From Candidatus Xenobia bacterium (GTDB lineage: Bacteria; Vulcanimicrobiota; Xenobia; Xenobiales; QWHO01): a DNA stretch of 10,245 nt. A program made the translations under genes and the position numbers. The notes below the pieces were generated by a model. That model was not told where the DNA came from and did not search any database. It saw only the letters and a list, made by a program, of their open reading frames with translations. The DNA is taken from the NCBI GenBank assembly GCA_045863235.1, contig BTUM01000147.1, positions 1 to 10,245 of the forward strand, written 5' to 3'. Within the stretch, counting starts at the first letter, position 1. Every line of letters begins with the position of its first letter. Below, in pieces: positions 1 through 10,245 of the stretch.

Positions 1-656
1 CGTGCTGGTGCCGCTGGCCGTCTCGGTGGTCTTGCTGGTCATGTTCCCGGCCTCGTCAAAGGCGAACACCTGCAGCATCGAGGTGCTGGTCCCGCTGTGG
101 GTGAGCTGCACTTTGGTGAAGTCCGGAGTCAGCGTCCCGCTTGAGCCCGCCGTCAGAAAGGCCTTGTAGCGGGCATATCGACCGGTTCTTGCGGAGCTTC
201 CAGAATCCAAAATGCTCTCCCACCTGGCGTTGTGAACAAATTCGATGCGCTTCCCAGCGGACCCTGGTAAGTCCAGGGACCATCCGGAGAGCTGCTCAGC
301 GCCACCTGGAACTCCACGTCGGCGCCGCCACCTGGCAGCGTCTCAGTCCAGGAGATGTTGTTCCACCGAGCGACCGGCGTCGTAGACTACCGACTCGTAA
401 GTGCCCGAGCTGCCGTAGTCGGGTCGGACGCTCCCGAGACGCGCTTGAAGTCCTGGAATCGCACCGAGCCGAGGTTGCCGTAGCAGCGAAGTCGGAGGTC
501 CCCAAGCCGGTGTCCTGAGTCGTAGTAGAGCGTGAGCGTGCTGCCCGCGCGCTGGAGATTGAAGCGACCCTGTTCGTCGGCCGAGCCTCCGGTCGCGTTC
601 AGCGAGGGGGGGCTGGTGTTCCAGATTCGAGCCCGCGCCCGTGTGGTGGCGACAGA
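1..656 (-). pseudogene. Frameshifted, apparently 5'-truncated fragment of a large RHS/YD-repeat protein (beta-rich surface-type domains followed by the first YD repeat); continues beyond the left edge
   Basis: Manual minus-strand translation gives a coherent protein only by switching frame three times: ...WNTSPPSLNATGGSADEQGRFNLQRAGSTLTLYYDSG...GSVRFQDFKRVSGASD / DYGSSGTYESVVYDA / VARWNNISWTETLPGGGADVEFQVALSSSPDGPWTYQGPLGSASNLFTTPG / ESILDSGSSARTGRYARYKAFLTAGSSGTLTPDFTKVQLTHSGTSTSMLQVFAFDEAGNMTSKTTETASGTST. Frame switches fall at about 421-423, 365-376 and 219-221. FAFDEAGNMTSKT matches the YD-repeat pattern Y-x-Y-D-x-x-G-N-L-T-x-K-T. The first segment is bounded upstream by an in-frame TGA (657-659) with no convincing start. 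Confidence 0.7.
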
Positions 657-775
657 TCAAGGCCCTCTTGCCCCGACGGCTCAATCGTTCTGGCAGGATG
701 GACCTGGTTCATCCTCCGGTCACAACCGGGCCGCCCATTCAACCCTGGATCAACGCTCCTCGGGCGGCCAGGCGC

Positions 776-787
776 CATGCTGTGGGC
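776..787 (+). promoter_or_regulatory. Possible -10 element (CATGCT) for a leaderless transcript starting at ATG 788
   Basis: CATGCT (776-781), then 6 nt, then ATG, with no Shine-Dalgarno. The geometry matches the TATACT-N6-ATG in front of the clostripain gene. It has two mismatches to TATAAT besides the first base, so it is a weak match. Confidence 0.35.
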
Positions 788-2512
788 ATGATCGCCTCAC
801 TCGGAGCCACCCCCCTCTGGCGGCAGCCCGCTCGCTCGTCCCCGCCGGGCGAGCCCTCCACAGCCCCCCACGACACCGTCACCACCACGTCGGTGGAGCC
901 CTGGGAGAGCCTGCGCTCCTCGGGCGCACTGCGCTCGGGAGCGTCGGTGGCGGCGGCGGCCTCGGTCACCACCGGTCCCGTGGGTCCGGTGGTGACCGAA
1001 GAGGTGCATCGCCAGCTGCTGGCGGCGGTGGACCGCATCGAGCGCGGCGGAGCTACCTTCGAGCGGCGCCAGGAGCGCTTTCTCTCTTTTCTCGAGCCGC
1101 GCTACCTGCCGCTGACCGAGGGTGCGCCCGTCTGTGAGCCGGACGGAACGGTGAGCGACCTGATGGTCACCGAGCCCGGCAACTCCAGGCGCATGGTGAC
1201 CGACCTGCGCGACCTGCAGTTGCTCGACTGCCAGTACGGGGCCGGGCCCGAAGCCCTCAGCCCGCAAGAGCAACCCATGCTCCTGGCCGCGACCAGGCTG
1301 CACGAGTTGTCCACGCGCCACTGGCAGTCGCCATGTCGTCAGCTCGATCGCTTGCAACGAGCGCAGCCGGTGGTGCTCGACCTTCCGGGAGGGGCCGTCC
1401 GGGTGGAGAACCTGGACGAGCTGGCCCTCATGGACTACCTGCGCGGATCGGGCCAGGGAGTTGAGAACCTGCGCCAACCCGAGCAGGCTCGACGGCTCAA
1501 GAGCGCCCGCGAAGCGGGGCTCGAGCTCACCCTGGACGGGCGCGATGCCGATCCACCAGAGCTCTACCGCAAACCCCAGGAAACCCTGTGCGCCGCCCGA
1601 GGCGAGGGCCTGGCGGTGCCAATCGAGGCGGAGGAGTTGGACGACCTGCCCAGGCTGGCGACCCGGCTCGAGCGCTACGAGCAGGTCTTCGAGGAGCGCA
1701 TCCTGCCCGCCCACGCTCGCTTCGGCAGGGATCATCGACCTCGGGTCTACCCCAGGCTCCTGGTGGAGAAGGGAGCCGGATTCTCGCTCGAGGTCACGGC
1801 GATGGTGCTGGCCGAGCTGCTCTCGCGGGGGCCCGAGAGGGCCTGGGAAGCCGAGCCGGAAGCCGAGAAGCTGGCTGAGGGGCTGCTCGCAACGGCCAGC
1901 GACGATCTCGACCTGGCCCTGAAGACACTCCGGATCTCGCGGGTCTACTCACACCAGGGATTGTCCCAAGCCCAGCAGCACCTGGCCGAGCTGGCCGGGC
2001 TGCCGCAGCGAGCCGACCTGCTGGACGCCTTCCGACGCGTTGTCGCGGGAACCCGCGGTCTGGAAGCGGCCGTGGAAGGGCTCGAGCTGGCGCGCATCCC
2101 GGTCGCTCAGGAGTCCATGAACGATCGCCTGGCGCTGTTCGAGCAACTGTCCCGCTGCCTGCCCCCGGAGCAAAGAGACGAGACCACGCCGCTCTATCGC
2201 ATGATCCTGGCCCAGCGTCACCCCTCCGACAGCCTGCAGGCGACCGGGAAGCGGTTCCTCGAGCTGCGCAGCCTGACTGGAGACGAGGAGGCACGCGAAG
2301 CCTTTCGGCGCATCCAGGAGCAGGCGCACGACCCGGCGGAGGCCGACCGGATGGTTTTCGAGCTGGCCCAGGCCCTGCTGATGGAGCAGGACCGCAAGGA
2401 GGCTCTGGCCAGGATTCTAGGCCAGACCGACCTGCCGCAGAGCCAGGTCGAGACGCGAGCCGACTCGGTGCTGGTGGGTGGGGTGCGGGTGAGGCGGAAG
2501 CTGGCCCGGTAG
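788..2512 (+). CDS. Hypothetical protein (~574 aa): Pro/Ser/Thr-rich N-terminal leader, two internal ~25-aa repeats, alpha-helical C-terminal half and terminal VLVGGVRVRRK motif
   Basis: Long ORF (track 641..2512) with strong G/C third-position bias. I moved the start to ATG 788 because its N-terminus aligns ungapped with the clostripain N-terminus and the region upstream overlaps the RHS fragment. ATG 698 is an alternative start. No family recognised. Confidence 0.8.
   Translation: MIASLGATPLWRQPARSSPPGEPSTAPHDTVTTTSVEPWESLRSSGALRSGASVAAAASVTTGPVGPVVTEEVHRQLLAAVDRIERGGATFERRQERFLSFLEPRYLPLTEGAPVCEPDGTVSDLMVTEPGNSRRMVTDLRDLQLLDCQYGAGPEALSPQEQPMLLAATRLHELSTRHWQSPCRQLDRLQRAQPVVLDLPGGAVRVENLDELALMDYLRGSGQGVENLRQPEQARRLKSAREAGLELTLDGRDADPPELYRKPQETLCAARGEGLAVPIEAEELDDLPRLATRLERYEQVFEERILPAHARFGRDHRPRVYPRLLVEKGAGFSLEVTAMVLAELLSRGPERAWEAEPEAEKLAEGLLATASDDLDLALKTLRISRVYSHQGLSQAQQHLAELAGLPQRADLLDAFRRVVAGTRGLEAAVEGLELARIPVAQESMNDRLALFEQLSRCLPPEQRDETTPLYRMILAQRHPSDSLQATGKRFLELRSLTGDEEAREAFRRIQEQAHDPAEADRMVFELAQALLMEQDRKEALARILGQTDLPQSQVETRADSVLVGGVRVRRKLAR
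962..999. repeat. Perfect 14-bp inverted repeat inside the CDS
   Basis: TCGGTCACCACCGG (962-975), 10-nt spacer, CCGGTGGTGACCGA (986-999). Confidence 0.85.
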
Positions 2513-2725
2513 CGCAAGAACTCCGGCTCTGCCTGGATTCTTCCCGGTATCGCCCTCATTCCGGCGTATACGCCCAAGCCAGCCCGGTACCGGAAAATTT
2601 CCGCGGGGGCTGTGGGGCCAGACCTCCAGGAGCTCAGCCGGACAGCCAACAGTCCTGCCTCTTGTGGTGGCGGAGGCGGGGTAGCTCCTCCGACCCCACA
2701 GCGGGGTTTTTACGGTCCGGACTTC

Positions 2726-2756
2726 TAAAGTGCAAGGCCTTTGGCCTTGCACTTTA
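2726..2756. terminator. Perfect 14-bp hairpin: possible bidirectional terminator, operator or side arm of the ncRNA
   Basis: TAAAGTGCAAGGCC-ttt-GGCCTTGCACTTTA between convergent genes. Only short T runs flank the GC core on either strand. Confidence 0.45.
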
Positions 2757-2757
2757 C

Positions 2758-2785
2758 AACGCGCCGGAACAGGTTTCGGCGCGTT
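2758..2785 (+). terminator. GC-rich hairpin immediately adjacent to the previous one; possible terminator
   Basis: AACGCGCCGGAAC-ag-GTTTCGGCGCGTT, with one G-U pair on the plus strand and only a weak U tract. Confidence 0.35.
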
Positions 2786-2878
2786 CGTCAGATTGTGCTA
2801 GCCCGAAACCGCGAGGGCCTCACTGGTGTCGCCTGAGCGACCAGAACGGCTAATGAGCAAAACCAAAGTGCGCGCACA

Positions 2879-4111
2879 TTAGCCGAAACAGCCCGACTTG
2901 GCGGGTGGGCCGCCGCTCGAGATGCGGCTCACGGCCTGAGCCCAGCGGGTGTCCTGGGCGAATTTCGTCTCGCTGTAGCTGTCGTTACGCTCCTCGGACA
3001 GGCTGAACGTGGGAGAGAGCTCCACGGTCAGGCCGTGGGCGCCGCTGAACCTGCTCGCGTGCTGCTCGAAGATCACCGCCTCGCGGGTCTTGCTCACCAC
3101 CTGGCCGGCCGCGTCCTTGAGGGCCTGGTCGCTGATGTCGCGACTCTTGTTGACCCGCTCGGCAAAATCATAGAGGTCCTTGTAATCGGTGAAGCCCTGC
3201 GTGCTGTTCGCGATCGACTTCAGAGTGGACATCGGGGTCTGGGTGGTCAGGATGGCGGCTGCCAGGCCATCCACGGCCTGAGTCAGGGCGGGCACCCGGG
3301 AAAGCTCAGTCGCGGACATGGTGGGCAGATCGCCGGTGTTGCCCTGGGCGGTGCGCACCACGTGCTGGCAGACCTCCCGAGGGGTCAGGTTGAGCCGCAG
3401 GGCCAGCTGACCCTGCAGGTTGGCGAGCATGTCAGGGTTCAAGATCTTGTGATAAGGCCAGCCGGCACCGCCCTCGACCTCTTCGGAGGCGACCAGGAAG
3501 TCAGCCTCGTCGCGGAGCTGGTGGGCCACCTCGACGGAGGCCATCAAGCAGGCGTCGAAACCCACCACGTCGATCTTGCGTCCAGTGGCCTGGCGGGCTT
3601 CCTTCATTCCCGCCTCGATGTCGGGCAGGCTCATCCAGCCGTTGTGGGAGTAGTCCTGGGCGGCGCCTTTCCAGCCGTTGCCGTGGTCGGAAATGATCAG
3701 CATGTAATTCTCGGCCGGGTAGCGCTCCATGCCCCACTGGATGAAGTTGGCCAGTTGCTTGGGGTCGGACATGTTGGTGGAGCCCAGCTCCTCAACCGGC
3801 GGGCTGTTGATCCCCTTCTGGTTGTTCTGGGTGATCAGGTAGCGCTTGGCGCCGTCCGACCGGCCGTGGTCGAACTGGGCCACCACGTTCGTCTGGGCGT
3901 CCGAGCCAACCCGCTCGGCCTCGTCGAGGTCGCTGAGCATGAAGCTCTTGAGGTCGTTGTCGGAGGCCGAGTAGACCAGGATGGTCCACTTCTTGGGCGC
4001 CGCTGGAGCCTGCTGGCCGATGGTTACGCGGTCGCCGCTATCCTCGGGCGGGGGTGCGCTCGAGCGGGCTGGCAGAGTGGACACTCGGGTGGGCGATATG
4101 GCAGTCAACAT
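2879..4111 (-). CDS. Clostripain-family (MEROPS C11) cysteine peptidase, ~410 aa
   Basis: Family motifs KKWTILVYSASDNDL, TNMSDPKQLANFIQWGMERYPAENYMLIISDHGNGW (catalytic His-Gly), IDVVGFDACLMASVEVAHQL (catalytic Cys) and VASEEVEGGAGWPY. I set the start to ATG 4111 (MLTAISPT...), which is preceded by TATACT. No hydrophobic Sec signal is present. Confidence 0.93.
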   Translation of the reverse strand: MLTAISPTRVSTLPARSSAPPPEDSGDRVTIGQQAPAAPKKWTILVYSASDNDLKSFMLSDLDEAERVGSDAQTNVVAQFDHGRSDGAKRYLITQNNQKGINSPPVEELGSTNMSDPKQLANFIQWGMERYPAENYMLIISDHGNGWKGAAQDYSHNGWMSLPDIEAGMKEARQATGRKIDVVGFDACLMASVEVAHQLRDEADFLVASEEVEGGAGWPYHKILNPDMLANLQGQLALRLNLTPREVCQHVVRTAQGNTGDLPTMSATELSRVPALTQAVDGLAAAILTTQTPMSTLKSIANSTQGFTDYKDLYDFAERVNKSRDISDQALKDAAGQVVSKTREAVIFEQHASRFSGAHGLTVELSPTFSLSEERNDSYSETKFAQDTRWAQAVSRISSGGPPAKSGCFG

Positions 4112-4123
4112 GGCGGCAGTATA
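4112..4123 (-). promoter_or_regulatory. -10 element TATACT 6 nt upstream of the ATG: likely leaderless promoter of the clostripain gene
   Basis: The minus strand reads TATACT-gccgcc-ATG (4123-4118, ATG at 4111), with no Shine-Dalgarno. Confidence 0.6.
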
Positions 4124-4189
4124 ACGGGGAACCCGGACCACCCGTTTGCCAGGTTGTAAACATGATTTCAGCAACCGTTAAGCCCTGGT

Positions 4190-4205
4190 TGCTAAAATGG
4201 AGGCG
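4190..4205 (+). promoter_or_regulatory. Extended -10 element (TGcTAAAAT) 7 nt upstream of ATG 4206: likely leaderless promoter
   Basis: TG-C-TAAAAT at 4190-4198, then ggaggcg-ATG. The GGAGG is only 2 nt from the ATG, which is too close for a normal RBS. Confidence 0.55.
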
Positions 4206-4883
4206 ATGTCGCCCATCGCTCTCTATCAGCGTTATGTCAGCCGCGAGTTCAATCAGGCTCGGGGGCGTTGCTGCCATTACACTCCCACCTGCAGCCAGTA
4301 CGCTCGCGACGCGATCGAGGCCCACGGGCTGCGCGAGGGTGGCGAGATGGCGTTCATGCGGTTCATGCGCTGCCGGCCGGACGTCAAAGCGAGCGGGCCG
4401 GACGAGGTTCCCGGGGCTCACCACGAGCACCGCGGCGTACGCGTCCCCATGTTCTACCCGCGCAAGGACTCCCCGCGCGCAGTCAGACTCGCGGCCGGGG
4501 CCGCCCAGGTGGCCGGGAAGCTCCTGGGCGCGCTGGGCGCGGGCCTGGCGGGGACGATCGGAGGGGCCTGCCTGGGGGGTTACCTGGGGGCCAAAGCGGG
4601 CCAGGGTCCCGACGCGATGGACGACTTCCACGCTCGCGTGGCCGGCAAGCACGGCCAGGACTCGCTCACGGGACTGAAACAGATCGAGCTCGTGACCTGC
4701 GGCCTGGGCACCATGACACACCGACTGGGCTGGCTCGGGGTGGCCGCAGGGGCCATCGGTGGCGCCGTCACGGGGGCCCTGGGCGGCGCGCTGGTCGCCG
4801 GCAAACTGGGCTGGGAGATGGGCGGCTACCTGGGGCGCAATCTGACGCTCGACCTGCTGGAAGGGTCTCGCTCGGGCAGCTGA
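4206..4883 (+). CDS. yidD: Membrane protein insertion efficiency factor YidD-like (haemolytic) domain fused to a C-terminal double glycine-zipper membrane region, ~225 aa
   Basis: IALYQRYVS...CHYTPTCSQYARDAIEAHGLREGGEMAFMRFMRCRP...GPDEVP reproduces the YidD three-Cys signature (C-x-Y/F-x-PTCS-x-Y...RC-x-P...G-x-D-x-VP). Two GxxxG-repeat hydrophobic segments follow. ATG 4197 is an alternative start. This is probably a paralogue, not the housekeeping yidD. Confidence 0.85.
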   Translation: MSPIALYQRYVSREFNQARGRCCHYTPTCSQYARDAIEAHGLREGGEMAFMRFMRCRPDVKASGPDEVPGAHHEHRGVRVPMFYPRKDSPRAVRLAAGAAQVAGKLLGALGAGLAGTIGGACLGGYLGAKAGQGPDAMDDFHARVAGKHGQDSLTGLKQIELVTCGLGTMTHRLGWLGVAAGAIGGAVTGALGGALVAGKLGWEMGGYLGRNLTLDLLEGSRSGS

Positions 4884-4929
4884 CGGGCGGGCGGGGATCC
4901 TAGGCGGTCGGAGCAGGTCGGGTCGGTTC

Positions 4930-7809
4930 CTATTCGGCGGTCGGGAACAGGTCCCCGATCTGGGGCCAGCCCTTCTTGGCGTCCTCAGCCTGGATCAGGG
5001 CCTCTACCGCGTCGATGAACTGTCCGATGGCGTAGTCGCTGACCTGTGTGCCCGGACCGGGCTCGGAGTTGAGCACGATGGCCCAGGCCAGCTGCGGCTC
5101 CGGGTAGTAGCGCATGAACGACATCGTCCCCGGCAGCGCCCCGTCCTTGGAGATGTTCAGGATCGTCTTGCCCTGCGCGGCCACGTTGAAGCCCATCCCG
5201 AAGTAGCCCCCGCTTCCCTGGTTAAAGGGCGGTCGCCGCACCATCATCTTCACCGTGTCGTCGGTAAGAGGGCGGACGAACCCGGAAGGCCCGTTGGGCC
5301 CCACGCTGTTGAGCAAACGCACCATGTCGGCCGTGGAGGCGATCAACCCCCCGCACGAGTCGTGTGCTCGCCCGTCCCAGACCCCCCCGTAGGTGGCCGA
5401 GACGATGTCGGTCTTGTCGGTGAAGACGCTCTGCCCCCCCACGTCGCCCGAACTGGGATAGTAGCTGACCTCCCCGGGGGCGGCCCCGTCCGGTCGCGTA
5501 TCGCTCACCCGCACCCGGCTCGCCCCGATCTGCAGCAGCAAGCGCTTGCGCAAGATGTCGCCGTAGCTTTCGCCGCTGCCCTCTACCGCTTCCACCAGTC
5601 GCCCGATGGCCAGGTAAGCAACGTCCGAGTAGACGTAGGTCGTCCCCGGCTTGGCCCCCAGCTGGAAGCTGTTCAGAATGGAGGTCAAGATCACCGCCGC
5701 CGAAGCCGGGGGAGGGTTCCCCAGGGTGAGCGCCTGAGGCGCGTAGAGCCCCGTGTCCGTATCCAGCCCGGCCGACATCTGCAGCAGCTCTTGTACGCTG
5801 ATACCGGTCACCTGGCTGTCCACCGGGCTCTGCACGAACGATGCCAGCACTCCCAGAGGGGAGAAGGGCTTATCGTCGTCCTTGACCAGGCCCGCCTGCA
5901 ACTGGATGAGCAGCGTCACGGCCGCAAACGACTTGGAGCAACTCGCCAGTCGGAACAGGTTGTCCGGCCGCACCGGGAGCTGCTGGCTATCGTTGTAGGT
6001 TCCGTAGCCATAGCCGCGGTGGATCACCAGCCGACCGCCCCGCGAGAGAGAGAACGAGCCTCCGGGAATCTCAAAGCGCTGCATCAGCGCCTGCACTCTG
6101 GTCTCGAAGTCGGAAAAGTCATCGTCGCTCAAGAGCGAAGTGCCCGTTGGGGAGGGCAACGGCGCGGGAGCGAGCACCGGCGGCACGTTGGGCACGAACT
6201 GCAGCACCTGGTCATTCTGCGAGACCCAGACGGCCCCGTCCAGCCCCACGGCGATACCCAGCGGGTTGGTGAAGGTGCCGAACGAGCCCAGCAAGCTGCC
6301 GCGAGCGTCGTAGCGCATGACCTGGGTCGCGGTCAGCACATACAGGTTACCGGCCCGGTCCAGGGCCACCTCGCGGGGGGCACTCACGGCAAAGTGGCGC
6401 AGCGAGCTCCCGTCCAGCGAGAGCACCTCGATCTTGTTGCCGCCGAAGTCGGCCACGTAGATCTGCCCGGCCCGGCTGATGGCCAGCCCGGCCGGCTTGC
6501 TCAGGATCTGGTTGCCAAACTTCTTTCCTGCCTCGTAGGCACCCCTGGTCTCATTGAAGTTGAATGCCTGGATCGAGTTATCGTCGAAGCCGCTCACGTA
6601 GAAGCTGCCCCCGGCGTCGGCCGCGACGCCGCCGGAAGCATCAAAGCCACTGAACGTCTGAGGTTTGGATCCGATCACCCGCACCTGTCCGCTGCCCCGG
6701 TCCGCGGCCATGATCGTCCCCGCGAAATCGCTGGCCGCCACGTGCACATCGCTGAAGGCGGTGGTGTTCAGATTCCCCAGCGATTGGCCTTGGGGGGAGA
6801 ATTGTGCGATAGCCGTCTCGGCGCACACCAGCAGCTCGTTGCTGAAGGGAACCGTGCCCAACCCGGCGGCGTCGGGCACATTCAGCGTCAGTCCTGGCGT
6901 GTAGACGCTGGCCAGCACGGGAAGATCCAGGTCGGTGCGCAGCAGCGACTGGATGGGCGCCACCCCGGTAGCCCGAATCTGGGAGGCGTCGTACACGATG
7001 ACCTGGCTGACCAGAGGTGGCAGGGACTTGAAATGATACCTGCCCTGAGCGTCCGTGGTCACGAAAAGGTTCGCGCCGGGCACCGAGACCTGCACGTTGG
7101 CCACCGGGGTCAGACCGTCGAGCACCCTGCCCTGGAGCGAGCCGGTCACTCCCTGATTGGCCTGGTGCATCTTCGCCTGGCTGCTGAGCCCCAACCCGCT
7201 CACGCGGATGCGGTAGCTCCCGGCCGGCTCGCTTCCCACCGTGGGGGTGCTCAGCACCCTCTGCTGATTGGGAAACTCGCTGAAGGCCGAGGTGTCCGGC
7301 GTGGGCCGGGGGGTGTCGTCCTCCTCCACCTCCCAGGTCAGCGCGGCCGGGTCCACCGGCGTGAAGCGGCCCAGAGCGTCCACCCCCACGGCCCGCATGG
7401 TCAACGTGTCCTCGTCGAGAAGCGACACCTGGTCGGGGAACAAGCTGAGACGCACCGGCGGCCCTGCCTCGGGCGAGAAAGCCGGCACCTCCACCAGCGC
7501 TCCCGGCGGGTCCACTCGCAGGAAGTGCCGTCCCGGAGCCGCCTGCAGCCGGAACTGCCCGTCGGGTCCAACCGCCACGCTCTGGCCCGAGCCGAGCAGG
7601 GTCACCTGGACTCCCGAGACTACCGTGGAGCCCTCGCTCACCGCCCCGTCCACCACCGAGATCAGCCCGCTGCTCGAGCGGACCAGCCGCCCGCTGATCT
7701 CGGCCGTCCGGGCCGGGGGAGGCGCCGGCAGCGTGCCGTCCGCCGTCGCGCCGCTCTCAGAGCAGCCATAAAAGAGCACGGTGACCAGCAGAAAAGATAG
7801 AAAGCGCAT
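4930..7809 (-). CDS. Lipoprotein: carboxypeptidase-regulatory-like/Ig-like domains + NHL-repeat beta-propeller + beta-lactamase-like (class C/AmpC-type) serine hydrolase, 959 aa
   Basis: Signal peptide II MRFLSFLLVTVLFYG-C. Two GxV...V.V.G...V.T/V..DG/QG.F/Y domains. About six NHL-like blades (e.g. LSKPAGLAISRAGQIYVADFGGNKIEV, FTNPLGIAVGLDGAVWV) and a Pro-rich linker. The hydrolase carries IPGGSFSL, FRLASCSKSF (SxxK, 5932-5943), ELLQMSAG, PGTTYVYSDVAY, GGLIASTADMVR and KDGALPG. Confidence 0.92.
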   Translation of the reverse strand: MRFLSFLLVTVLFYGCSESGATADGTLPAPPPARTAEISGRLVRSSSGLISVVDGAVSEGSTVVSGVQVTLLGSGQSVAVGPDGQFRLQAAPGRHFLRVDPPGALVEVPAFSPEAGPPVRLSLFPDQVSLLDEDTLTMRAVGVDALGRFTPVDPAALTWEVEEDDTPRPTPDTSAFSEFPNQQRVLSTPTVGSEPAGSYRIRVSGLGLSSQAKMHQANQGVTGSLQGRVLDGLTPVANVQVSVPGANLFVTTDAQGRYHFKSLPPLVSQVIVYDASQIRATGVAPIQSLLRTDLDLPVLASVYTPGLTLNVPDAAGLGTVPFSNELLVCAETAIAQFSPQGQSLGNLNTTAFSDVHVAASDFAGTIMAADRGSGQVRVIGSKPQTFSGFDASGGVAADAGGSFYVSGFDDNSIQAFNFNETRGAYEAGKKFGNQILSKPAGLAISRAGQIYVADFGGNKIEVLSLDGSSLRHFAVSAPREVALDRAGNLYVLTATQVMRYDARGSLLGSFGTFTNPLGIAVGLDGAVWVSQNDQVLQFVPNVPPVLAPAPLPSPTGTSLLSDDDFSDFETRVQALMQRFEIPGGSFSLSRGGRLVIHRGYGYGTYNDSQQLPVRPDNLFRLASCSKSFAAVTLLIQLQAGLVKDDDKPFSPLGVLASFVQSPVDSQVTGISVQELLQMSAGLDTDTGLYAPQALTLGNPPPASAAVILTSILNSFQLGAKPGTTYVYSDVAYLAIGRLVEAVEGSGESYGDILRKRLLLQIGASRVRVSDTRPDGAAPGEVSYYPSSGDVGGQSVFTDKTDIVSATYGGVWDGRAHDSCGGLIASTADMVRLLNSVGPNGPSGFVRPLTDDTVKMMVRRPPFNQGSGGYFGMGFNVAAQGKTILNISKDGALPGTMSFMRYYPEPQLAWAIVLNSEPGPGTQVSDYAIGQFIDAVEALIQAEDAKKGWPQIGDLFPTAE

Positions 7810-7989
7810 TCGAGCCCATTCAGGCGAGCCGCTGACATTCCTGTCCGGCCGCTCGCGCGTCTTCCGGTAAGCCCTGGATCAGGGAAGGGTAACAGCCAGT
7901 TCCCATGACCGCCCCCTCCGAGACGCGCCCGAGACGCTCTCCAGGCGGCCGCCAGGCATCATCCAGCCACCACAAGCTCGGAGGGCGAC

Positions 7990-8802
7990 ATGCAGATTCA
8001 CACGTTCCAACAACACTCGAGTGCTTCTCGGCTGGAGTGGATGGCGCCGCCCGGGAGCCCTGCGCGCGCCGTGGACGAGACTCCCCCCACTCTCTCGTCC
8101 CCATCTGCCGCCCGCGAGTCCTTCCACTCCGAGTCGACTGATGGCTGGCGAAGATCCGCCGCACTCGCCAGCCTGGCCATCGTCGGGCTGGGACTGACCG
8201 GCTCCGCGGCACTCCAGCCCCCTCAGCCGCCGGCCATCTGCGTTGCCGGGACGACCAGCGAGCCCCGCGCTCCGGTCGCCCAGCCGCGCACCGCCCTGCA
8301 AAAGCACGTCGACTTCTTCGACCGCAACGGCGACGGCCAGACCCGGGTCTGGGAGACTTACCAGGGCCTGCGAGCTCTAAAGCTGGGCCGCATGCTCTCG
8401 GCCGCCGGAGCAGTGGCCATCAATGCCTCGCTCGGGCTCAAGACCGGCTCGCCCTGGTACAGCTGGCTCACCATCCAGAATGATGGCATTCACATGGGCA
8501 AGCACGAGGGCGACACCGATGTCTATGACGAGCAGGGCAACTTCGTCCAATCCAGGTTCAACGCCCTTTTCACGAACTTCGACAAGAACGGTGACGACGC
8601 GCTGAGCAAGCAAGAGCTGGACGACATGATGATCGCCCGGGGCAACGGCAAGGCCAACCTCGGGTCGAAGGCCGAGTTCGGGCTCCTGCTCGAGATTGCC
8701 GGCGAAGACCGTCCCGAAGGGCGCGTGGTCACCCGCAAGACCCTCCAGGCCCTCTATGACGGCTCGCTGTTCTACACCCTGGCGGGCGAGAAAGCGCCCT
8801 GA
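7990..8802 (+). CDS. Caleosin-family (peroxygenase-like, EF-hand calcium-binding) protein, 270 aa, with a disordered leader and a hydrophobic helix N-terminal to the domain
   Basis: TALQKHVDFFDRNGDGQTRVWETYQGLRAL, IHMGKHEGDTDVYDEQGNFV..F..LF, EFGLLL and LYDGSLFY match caleosin consensus blocks (LQQHVAFFD.D.DG.I.PWETY.G.RALG; IH..KHGSD...YD.EG.F; YDGSLF). RBS GGAGG at 7980-7984. Confidence 0.92.
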   Translation: MQIHTFQQHSSASRLEWMAPPGSPARAVDETPPTLSSPSAARESFHSESTDGWRRSAALASLAIVGLGLTGSAALQPPQPPAICVAGTTSEPRAPVAQPRTALQKHVDFFDRNGDGQTRVWETYQGLRALKLGRMLSAAGAVAINASLGLKTGSPWYSWLTIQNDGIHMGKHEGDTDVYDEQGNFVQSRFNALFTNFDKNGDDALSKQELDDMMIARGNGKANLGSKAEFGLLLEIAGEDRPEGRVVTRKTLQALYDGSLFYTLAGEKAP

Positions 8803-8830
8803 GAAGCAGGCACCCTACCATCGGGACAGC

Positions 8831-9547
8831 CTAAGGCCCCGTAATCCGGTCGAGCGTGGGGCTGGGAAACCGCGGGTAGCGCGCGCCGTCATCCTTCTGG
8901 AAAATTCCGCAGGCCTCCAGCTTGCCCAGACCCTGGGCCAGCTTCCTCTCGATGTCCTGGTTGAAGGCTCCGGTGAGGATAGACAACCGCTTGACCTTCA
9001 GCAGTTTGCAGGTCTCCACGATCTCCTGGGCGGCGCTGGGCACGTCGGAGATGTCGTCCCCGCTGAAATACCAGAAGAGTCCGAGAGTGTCCAGATCGTG
9101 CCCCTGGAGCTCGAGACCGAGCCGCTGGATGGACTTCTCCACGAAACCCCCGGTGACCAGGATGAAGTGACGGGTCGGCCCGCCCCGCAGGGCGGCCGCG
9201 ATCGGCGCCACCTGGTCCGGCTTAAGGGCGCCCACGGGACGCCCTCCGCTGGCGCTCGGCTCCCACCAGTGCTGGTAGACGACAAAGCCGTTGCGGGGCG
9301 CGTGCTGCTGGTTCTGGAGGGTCTGGAGGATCTCCAGGCTGTCGGTCTCCACCATCGGTGGGAGAGCGGTCTGCAGGGTCAGACTGCGGTCCGAAGGGGA
9401 AGCCGGGTTGAACCACCGGCTCGAGCCCACCGCCATCATGCGCATGGCGTTGCCGGACTGCTCGGTGACCATGCGCAGGCGCGTGCCGGGATAGCGCGGC
9501 AGGAATCTGTAGTCGGCTTTGGGCTTCCTTTTGAACAGTCCCCCCAT
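8831..9547 (-). CDS. Hypothetical protein (~238 aa), probably alpha/beta fold
   Basis: 3' part of track ORF 8831..10060, with typical codon bias from ATG 9547 (MGGLFKRKPKADYRF...). The further upstream extension overlaps the opposite-strand LytTR-like gene. No family recognised. Confidence 0.75.
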   Translation of the reverse strand: MGGLFKRKPKADYRFLPRYPGTRLRMVTEQSGNAMRMMAVGSSRWFNPASPSDRSLTLQTALPPMVETDSLEILQTLQNQQHAPRNGFVVYQHWWEPSASGGRPVGALKPDQVAPIAAALRGGPTRHFILVTGGFVEKSIQRLGLELQGHDLDTLGLFWYFSGDDISDVPSAAQEIVETCKLLKVKRLSILTGAFNQDIERKLAQGLGKLEACGIFQKDDGARYPRFPSPTLDRITGP

Positions 9548-9622
9548 AAGGGGATGATTCGTCGAGTGAACCAGAATTCCGTTTCGGGAAAGGAGTCGCC
9601 CGGGACCACCGAAGGGGGAGCG

Positions 9623-10245
9623 ATGCCCCTTGACCCGCGCGACCCGCTGGTGGTTCAGACCCAGAGGGGGTTGGGTTTCTGGCCCTGCCACCTGGTCGCC
9701 TCCCTCACCCCCGAGCACGGAGACCGGTTGCGCGTGGTGCGGTTTGACGGGGAAGTTGCCCACCGTCCCGGCCCTCTCCCGACCGGCCCCTGGAGCCCCC
9801 TGGGCCCCTCGCTGGTGCGTCCCGAGCACCTGCGCGAGCAGAACGGCTACCTGGTGGACCCGGCCGGATTCGTGCTTGGCCAGGGAACCCCGGCCCCCCA
9901 GCCTCCGCCTGCTCCCGAGGAGCCCCTGCCGGGCCTCGGGCTTTGCCCGGGGGAGGTGCTCTACCTCCGGGGCGCGGGGGGCCAGGCCCACTGGCACACC
10001 GACCGGGGTCCCCTGAACGCCGGAGCCTCGGCCGAAGCCGCCGCCCCCCTGCACCCCCACCTGGTGGCGGCCGGGCGGGGCACCTACCTCAACCGCCGGC
10101 GCCTGGGCGCGATTCTGGCCGAGCGCAAGCGCTTTCGGCTGGTGCTCGACAACGGCTCCGAGCTCACCGTTTCCTGGGGCGCTCGCAAGCCTCTGTGCTG
10201 GTATGATGCCTACAGGCAGCCAGCAATGGCGCCCCTGCTAGGGAA
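9623..10245 (+). CDS. LytTR-like domain protein (one clear and one degenerate domain), partial; open to the right edge and absent from the ORF track
   Basis: RBS-like GGGGGAG before ATG 9623, with an open frame to the window end: MPLDPRDPLVVQTQRGLGFWPCHLVASLTP...EVLYLRGAGGQAHWHTDRG...HPHLVAAGRGTYLNRRRLGAILAERKRFRLVLDNGSELTVSWGARKPL. This follows the LytTR pattern (ILY.....HT..G...F.R.HRSY.VN...I..I....L.L.NG..L.VSR). Confidence 0.75.
   Translation, partial: MPLDPRDPLVVQTQRGLGFWPCHLVASLTPEHGDRLRVVRFDGEVAHRPGPLPTGPWSPLGPSLVRPEHLREQNGYLVDPAGFVLGQGTPAPQPPPAPEEPLPGLGLCPGEVLYLRGAGGQAHWHTDRGPLNAGASAEAAAPLHPHLVAAGRGTYLNRRRLGAILAERKRFRLVLDNGSELTVSWGARKPLCWYDAYRQPAMAPLLG

Follow-up and report, generated by a model that had tools for sequence, protein, structure and literature searches.

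Two genes with matched N-termini

We analysed a 10,245-nt stretch from a Candidatus Xenobia bacterium (GenBank assembly GCA_045863235.1, contig BTUM01000147.1, positions 1 to 10,245; hereafter the window), a member of the lineage Eremiobacterota (Vulcanimicrobiota). Two convergent genes in the window encode a protein of an unnamed family (the 788 protein) and a clostripain peptidase. Both proteins begin with a short leader, and the 788 protein also ends in a C-terminal tag (C-tag). An earlier note on this DNA had pointed to the shared N-terminus and proposed an export tag carried by diverse proteins. Here we describe the protein set to which the pair belongs and weigh the route that its members may take. 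The pair comprises the following features (window coordinates):

776..781, + strand: -10-like hexamer CATGCT, 6 nt 5' of the ATG (predicted leaderless start; sequence and start model)
788..2512, + strand: 574-amino-acid (aa) protein of an unnamed family, with both tags; no Pfam family
788..889, + strand: N-terminal leader of the 788 protein, aa 1-34, with a degenerate core D-T-V-T-T-T at 872-889 (score 12.3, cross-validated 10.6)
2447..2500, + strand: C-tag of the 788 protein, VETRADSVLVGGVRVRRK, aa 554-571, a predicted three-strand meander plus basic tail (score 39.0)
2879..4111, - strand: clostripain (C11) peptidase, leader in place of a Sec signal, no C-tag (PF03415, E=2e-45)
4016..4111, - strand: N-terminal leader of the clostripain, aa 1-32, core D-R-V-T-I-G at 4033-4016 (score 26.4, cross-validated 23.6)
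4118..4123, - strand: -10-like hexamer TATACT, 6 nt 5' of the clostripain ATG (sequence; present in 4/4 ortholog loci)

The source genome (G000; other G, f, g and L labels denote relatives, families, genera and loci) measures 8.36 Mb at 65.8% GC and is 97.6% complete. A custom gene finder yielded 7,127 genes, with starts assigned by a self-trained start model (neither Prodigal nor SignalP), and protein statistics refer to the 6,418 proteins that have at least 100 aa, a coding score above 20 and a position away from contig ends. Sec-like signals were called by a hydropathy rule only. Controls consisted of composition-preserving shuffles, internal sequence and cross-validation, by contig halves for the leader; the promoter box described below was also cross-validated. 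The unpublished genomes G232 and G242 are the basis of no claim. The start model supports leaderless starts for both genes (posterior 0.94 for 788 and 0.87 for 4111), each 6 nt downstream of a -10-like hexamer. Contigs from RNA libraries (sludge and wastewater runs) match parts of the two genes but cannot show transcription, strand or starts.

Aligned without gaps over aa 2-34, the two N-termini are identical at T8, PARSS (14-18), P20 and T30, 8 of 33 positions. Eight or more identities arise in 0.35% of 200,000 random N-terminus pairs and in 3.7% of 12,561 pairs of leader proteins. The likeness is above that of random N-termini yet unremarkable within the leader class; the resemblance is real, and PARSS is incidental to it. 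The N-termini quoted in the earlier note, with T8 and PARSS at 14-18, were as described. Its D-x-V-T register was not, lying 2 residues off (D29 in the 788 protein, D27 in the clostripain), and neither was PARSS a signal: it occurs in the first 60 aa of only 2/6,418 proteins (shuffled 0.7 +/- 1.0) and is replaced by PKRSS and PTRTS in clostripain orthologs of 2/4 relatives. PARSS, PAR and D-x-V-T were rejected as motifs for want of enrichment, D-x-V-T being found in 58 N-termini against 61-75 expected. Homologs of the 788 protein carry DQVQLS, DTVTLS or DRVELS where it has DTVTTT; given these canonical cores, the note did align homologous positions.

The clostripain core, D-[RK]-V-T-[IVL]-G, is kept in all four same-genus orthologs, and homologs in family f2 reach leader scores of 24-31 in three of seven loci examined. 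Nineteen matches to the clostripain lie within G000, and a paralog (gene g5678) has a Sec-like signal where the clostripain has its leader. The 788 protein has 42 homolog representatives at E<=1e-3, and 20 of its 22 in-genome jackhmmer matches (query counted) are tagged. Its predicted model is confident overall (predicted local distance difference test, pLDDT, 85.9) and has no Foldseek fold match at E<=1e-3; the leader is predicted to be disordered, with pLDDT<50 for aa 1-19 and 24-34.

A leader and a C-tag mark about one protein in twenty

Across the genome the leader follows a two-block model: M-x-[IV], a Ser/Pro/Ala spacer, then P-x-[DE]-x-[VF]-x-[LP]-[SG] or a D-x-F-x-P-S variant, with the core near residues 26-32. 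The pattern D-x-V-x-[ILV]-[GS] is found 139 times in the first 60 aa, 68 of them in a ten-residue band around aa 26-35, compared with 43 in shuffled and 57 in internal sequence. At 15 bits or more the model retrieves 159 proteins versus 2 from shuffled sequence; cross-validated on half of the contigs with no signal-peptide filter, 184/6,418 score at least 10 versus 5 shuffled. Isoleucine or valine occupies aa 3 in 64% of leader proteins, and an Asp falls within aa 26-32 in 128/159. The spacer is enriched for a loose R-P (71/159 versus 32 shuffled) and for P-x-R-[AS] (26 versus 8.7); nothing tighter held. The leader thus exceeds both shuffled and internal sequence, and the low-complexity objection that the note had raised against itself found no support.

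Tagged proteins avoid Sec signals. A Sec-like hydrophobic N-terminus was called in 5/184 leader proteins and 2/185 C-tag proteins, against about 27% of the rest, and among the 76 leader proteins that have a homolog in the genome, 6 have a paralog carrying a Sec-like signal at the same place (four families by our reading). These statistics bear out the proposal of a lineage-specific, non-Sec N-terminal tag on diverse cargo. Leader proteins share with type III substrates the lack of a Sec signal (by the hydropathy rule) and a disordered, Ser/Pro/Thr-rich N-terminus, and with early flagellar subunits a pair of motifs set a fixed distance apart, the first being the hydrophobic aa 2-5. In partial samples of G006 (13 versus 7-9.5, 554 genes), G049, G009 and G013, the leader regular expression showed no clear enrichment, and leader cargo is therefore rare there or unsampled.

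The C-tag, [VI]-x-E-x4-[VL]-x-[VI]-G-G-V-x-[VL]-[RK]-[RK]-R, ends 185/6,418 proteins, compared with 1.3 expected from internal and 1 from shuffled sequence. Its model was not cross-validated, with a count nearly constant from 8 to 20 bits. The motif contains a D-x-V-x-V-G strand resembling the leader core; in the predicted 788 model it forms strands at 554-556, 560-563 and 566-569 (pLDDT about 70), and it is retained throughout the 788 family at 18-35% identity. Leader and C-tag occur together in 45/184 proteins (odds ratio (OR) 14). The tagged set, with either or both, comprises 320 proteins, about one in twenty, in 200 BLAST components; 24/320 of their genes lie inside operons versus 2,073/6,098 others. 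A Pfam scan of 84 C-tags found no common family, PDB sequence searches with the leader and C-tag profiles returned nothing significant, and the ESM Atlas gave no usable match.

A C-tag profile built from 84 tags, five f10/f17 sequences included, had matches in 18/76 genomes: at least 95 per genome in five members of g1, 17 and 33 in f4, 8 and 14 in f10, 20 in f17, 4-6 in three of four g8 genomes and 1-3 in five others, with no match in f14. All five f10/f17 genes inspected end in the tag, and by eye four have a core resembling that of the leader. Matches to the C-tag DNA pattern that occur as single copies in f14 and f19 were rejected, being internal to one long protein in 7/7 loci checked; by eye this appears to be a DNA ligase, and the single weak f19 matches are probably a ligase coincidence.

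We surveyed cargo by a Pfam scan of 99/320 tagged proteins, picked for clustering on contigs, and 32 had a match at 1e-5. They include three subtilases (S8); C39, M14, C11 and C92 peptidases; GHL10, GDPD and a deiminase; two lipid desaturases, a monogalactosyldiacylglycerol synthase and an acyl carrier; and PQQ/PD40 propellers and MAM domains. One match to a heavy-metal P-type ATPase is probably spurious. Cargo proteins are up to 1,800 aa long.

Half of the tagged genes carry a common promoter box

Upstream of tagged genes we found a box, tTTCAG-n5-TTTCAG-n10-TAnnCT, usually 5-9 nt before the ATG. It precedes 169/320 tagged genes versus 177/6,098 others (OR 37, cross-validated), including 88/135 genes with a C-tag only. 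Among the 177 non-tagged box genes, 19 encode Sec-like signals and 56 a leader head; in all, 497 genes have a tag or a box. Exact copies number 44 in G000 (control 0), and the pattern is present in 4/4 f1, 16/16 f2 and 1/19 f3 genomes. We take its 11-bp period and 10-nt distance to the -10 element to be a PhoB/SARP-like geometry. Among candidate regulators, 0/26 Trans_reg_C matches carry the box themselves. The interpretation offered in the earlier note is partly supported; it overlooked both the C-tag on the 788 protein and this common box.

A flagellar-type export cluster lacks detectable motility genes

The earlier note had suggested searching for flagellar, type III or type VI secretion system (T3SS, T6SS) and related machinery. 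A flagellar-type cluster emerged on contig C27, running from flgB to flhA and encoding FlgB, FlgC, FliE/F/G/H/I/J/K/M/N/O/P/Q/R, FlhB and FlhA, so that the type III gate and ATPase set (FlhAB, FliPQR, FliHIJ) is complete. The T6SS protein VipB and a phage-type sheath were not found in G000, nor were VirB4 and encapsulin. Downstream (3') of the cluster come a conserved 104-aa gene (51/76 genomes) and three genes for an 81-aa helical protein. A 473-aa protein encoded there resembles the 81-aa protein at its C-terminus, with 41% identity. The 81-aa subunit family has no significant Pfam match.

No flagellin was found in the 97.6% complete genome, and tblastn with a relative's motility genes gave no match in G000 for FlgK/L, FliD/S/W, FlgA/D/H/I or MotA/B. 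G000 therefore lacks the detectable hallmarks of a motile flagellum (flagellin, FlgK/L, FliD, FlgD and MotA/B), and rings were likewise not found. The motor-less cluster is syntenic in G013, G055 and G066, with FlhA 74-83% identical versus 40-54% for motility loci; by this comparison it is distinct from the motility cluster. Among the 76 genomes FliP is present in 74 and flagellin in 24, nearly all of the latter with at least two FliP matches.

A second small cluster at C74:407-4124 holds FlgG and FlgF (tblastn) together with FlgJ-like, stand-alone FlhB-C-like and FliK-like genes recognised by eye, and a subunit-like gene lies at C74:12551. Additional homologs of the 81-aa subunit are located at C3:179378, C78:33076, C69:19357, C34:7011 and C18:86870, the C34 copy having a leader-like P-A-E-S-I-T-L-S. 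FHIPEP matches number 7 in G000 and up to 19 in relatives; stand-alone FlhA cytoplasmic-domain paralogs at C80:28012-29436, C3:26973-28175 and C1:377631-378854 are candidate cargo adaptors. Seven YbjN-like matches lie outside the export cluster, two of them adjoining box-bearing or tagged genes. Flagellin-less f14 genomes (L150, L151) have a different, more distant export cluster (FlhA 33-60% identical). In G007 (C1:315249-319272, L147), about 1.6 kb separates an extra secA from a partial match to FlhA.

The tagged proteins are probably routed through the export cluster

The most direct connection between tag and machine comes from long proteins that end in an 81-aa-like domain. Ten of 20 distinct examples have a leader-core score of at least 8, against a background of 1.6%. 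Such proteins would have to pass this gate, which would make the leader on them the best evidence for the connection. In G006, which has one SecA, a subunit-like gene about 0.9 kb 3' of flhA has the top leader score of 554 genes (15.9). The box also stands 5' of one 81-aa subunit gene and of two same-locus homologs. A single complex prediction of FlhA-C, FlhB-C and the leader (score 0.04, mark 0.32) was not used.

Sequence statistics establish both tags and their co-occurrence, the avoidance of Sec-like signals, a box upstream of half the tagged genes and the export cluster, together with the leader on the subunit-like proteins of its locus. From these we estimate a probability of roughly 60% that the two window genes encode members of a group of about 320 proteins, bearing leader, C-tag or both, that is routed through a flagellum-derived type III exporter, one for which no motor or flagellin was found. 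Flagellar or type III export, as the earlier note surmised, appears to be the best guess for the route.

We envisage a two-part export signal, formed by the hydrophobic head at aa 2-5 and, about 27 residues further on, the D-x-V-x-L-S/G strand, which the FlhB/FlhA gate or a chaperone would recognise as in early flagellar subunits. The C-tag could serve as an optional second docking or sorting site. A winged-helix-type activator may co-induce many cargo genes together with one filament-subunit gene, and the cargo would be delivered outside the cell or into prey.

A number of observations weigh against type III routing. Neither window gene (788, 4111) has the box, nor does the main export operon, and the box marks only 1/3 subunit copies and 2/59 subunit-like matches in relatives' loci. 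The 20 subunit-like proteins are kin, not independent. The leader model gives low scores to FlgB, FlgC, FliE and FliK of the cluster and also to the 473-aa subunit-like protein of G000, despite its DEVTLS. The FlgM analogy drawn in the earlier note held in outline: FlgMs of three relatives share M-x-I/V, a disordered spacer and a short hydrophobic strand ending in Ser near aa 35-42. They lack the Asp, however, and score 5.4, -0.1 and -3.2 against a cut-off of 12; FlgM itself has no match in G000. The C-tag profile has no match in g2, g3 and g4, where the gate is present, and with FliP in 74/76 genomes co-distribution cannot single out the machine. The search for CesT-family chaperones (PF05932) found none, its control being silent too. 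Gene starts and signal peptides come from our own simple models, and G000 has two extra SecAs, whose presence roughly follows the tag-rich genomes.

Those SecAs raise another route, in which an accessory SecA (SecA2-type) would read the leader and pass cargo through Sec without a hydrophobic signal, maybe onward by a type II secretion system (T2SS). Three SecA matches over the cut-off and a T2SS-like secretin operon in G000, extra SecA matches common in the large tag-rich genomes of f1, f2, g8, G055 and G066, and the exchange of leader and Sec signals among paralogs all speak for it. An extra SecA is nevertheless not found in every tag-bearing genome: G006 has one match yet carries the leader on subunit-like genes of its export locus, and G045 (99% complete) and G097 have one match each with 8 and 33 C-tag matches. 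The extra secA genes also lack the box, and no secY2 or accessory gene was recognised beside them from N-termini, their neighbours being unscanned against Pfam. We consider this route unlikely, while noting that SecA paralogs and a type III gate may not be strict alternatives. Quite unlikely, too, is a division of labour in which the leader alone directs export and the C-tag acts after or apart from it, for example by binding a membrane, surface or host component through its strand meander and basic tail. That 141/185 C-tag proteins score below 15 on the leader model would fit, as would a tag patchy among genomes that nearly all have the gate, and a C-tag cargo made up largely of propellers, MAM/CUB and unknown domains, most enzymes being found in the leader-only cargo. 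C-tag proteins are, however, equally devoid of Sec signals (2/185), are enriched for the leader head (43% versus 6%) and the box (88/135 C-only genes), and repeat a leader-like strand within the tag itself.

Tags could instead send proteins to a compartment or assembly inside the cell, such as an encapsulin-like shell or a storage granule. We presume a loose likeness between the C-tag and encapsulin cargo peptides, and some cargo (acyl carrier, lipid enzymes, AAA ATPase) could act intracellularly. Set against this, G000 has no encapsulin, the encapsulins in 5/30 genomes do not follow the tag, and the cargo extends to 1,800 aa and includes peptidases with Sec-signal paralogs; an intracellular destination is improbable. 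Chance likeness of low-complexity N-termini in a high-GC proteome accounts for PARSS itself. For the class it is refuted, since shuffles, internal controls and cross-validation fail to reproduce leader, C-tag or box, and we give it almost no weight.

Other features of the window

4166..4198, + strand: regulon box with two 11-bp-period repeats, a 10-nt spacer and TAAAAT, 5' of a divergent YidD-domain gene at 4206 (cross-validated score 22.0)
7990..8802, + strand: caleosin with a Ser/Pro-rich N-terminus, a doubtful member of the tagged set (PF05042, E=1.6e-37)

The box-bearing gene at 4206-4883 fuses a YidD domain to a Gly-rich hydrophobic region; its paralog at C5:112024 is also box-bearing, and another (C7) is fused to a clostripain domain. 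The caleosin, which the earlier note had included more loosely, is not a clear member: from 7990 its leader score is 5.2 (cut-off 12), and it has no C-tag and no box within 200 nt of an 8071 start. An open-ended open reading frame (ORF) at 9629-10245 has no Pfam match; by eye we take it to hold tandem LytTR-type domains.

Around the clostripain, a near-palindrome, GTTTACAACCTGGCAAA (- strand), lies upstream at 4141-4160 and recurs upstream of the paralog at C41:5730; it may be an additional operator, serving leader genes that lack the main box. Between the two convergent genes, 2660-2900 is a dispersed palindromic intergenic repeat, REP- or MITE-like (repetitive extragenic palindrome or miniature inverted-repeat transposable element), with 82 BLASTN matches in the genome, up to 49 of them over 2741-2780; it also has many loose-ended contigs among the RNA runs. 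The last residues of the clostripain are K-S-G-C-F-G (2882-2911, - strand), and S-G-C-F-G is retained in 4/4 orthologs. A leader-bearing subtilase (G000 C5:163067-165310) ends in K-S-G-C-F, and together they are the only 2/6,418 such ends. We take these ends to be reminiscent of a eukaryotic lipidation tail.

Comparison with known systems

Early flagellar subunits offer the closest parallel. Their two-part export signal consists of hydrophobic aa 2-5 plus a gate recognition motif, at aa 36-40 of Salmonella FlgD (PMC8983047), and a third, C-terminal export signal is described in FlgE (PMC10936197). The proteins described here likewise pair a hydrophobic extreme N-terminus with a short hydrophobic motif at fixed distance, lack a Sec signal, may have a C-terminal signal and would use an FlhB/FlhA gate. 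They differ in an Asp-led consensus spread over hundreds of unrelated non-structural proteins, while the rod subunits of the cluster lack the motif. Another parallel is the beta-motif of class I chaperone substrates, along with Tir of enteropathogenic Escherichia coli (EPEC), which has CesT sites at both its N- and C-terminal ends; type III export can require a C-terminal site (PMC6114900). Short alternating hydrophobic strands at both substrate ends are the common feature; unlike those sites, the C-tag forms a meander of three strands, with a GG turn and a basic tail, and CesT had no match (control silent).

The promoter box invites comparison with the plant-inducible promoter (PIP) box of the Xanthomonas HrpX regulon, given as TTCGB-N15/N8-TTCGB (PMC7831014). 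Both are direct-repeat elements on many scattered cargo genes plus a secretion-locus gene, whereas ours has another sequence, an 11-bp period, 10 nt to the -10 and mostly leaderless genes, and is absent from the core export operon.

Non-flagellar T3SSs, including the needle-less Myxococcus T3SS* (PMC3459982, PMC12428579), share with the C27 cluster a flagellum-derived export core used without motility. The rule of PMC3459982 for a non-flagellar T3SS is a cluster secretin and no FlgB, FlgC or FliE. C27 instead keeps FlgB, FlgC, FliE, FliG and FliM, has its own 81-aa subunit family and no cluster secretin, the three secretin matches of G000 all lying off its contig. By that rule it would be a flagellum, yet it fails a motility test by gene content; it may work like an injectisome core outside that class.

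Implications

Marine members of the lineage are noted for diverse secretion systems and predicted to be predatory in PMC9259500, and the main text of PMC11484240 mentions neither secretion nor flagella. We found no description of the tags or the machine in the open-access literature. More tentatively, with odds we put somewhat below even, Xenobia and related Eremiobacterota may have independently converted the basal body of the flagellum into a dedicated injector that has a small filament subunit, a promoter code and a two-ended address code of its own and ships 300-500 proteins in this genus. The rod genes would have been kept, and annotation tools would therefore call the machine a flagellum; it would be a living intermediate between flagellum and injectisome. 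A repertoire of 300-500 exported proteins would exceed any type III repertoire known to us and, if true, would rank among the largest known arsenals of secreted proteins.

According to PMC8983047, type III substrates have no peptide sequence in common. Hundreds of unrelated proteins with a countable, position-fixed leader, a second tag and a promoter would therefore make type III gate recognition approachable with defined motifs. If the route holds, this would be a second flagellum-to-secretion transition, filed as a flagellum by the standard rule, and the tagged set would supply a catalogue of candidate effectors from a lineage that is uncultured and possibly predatory.

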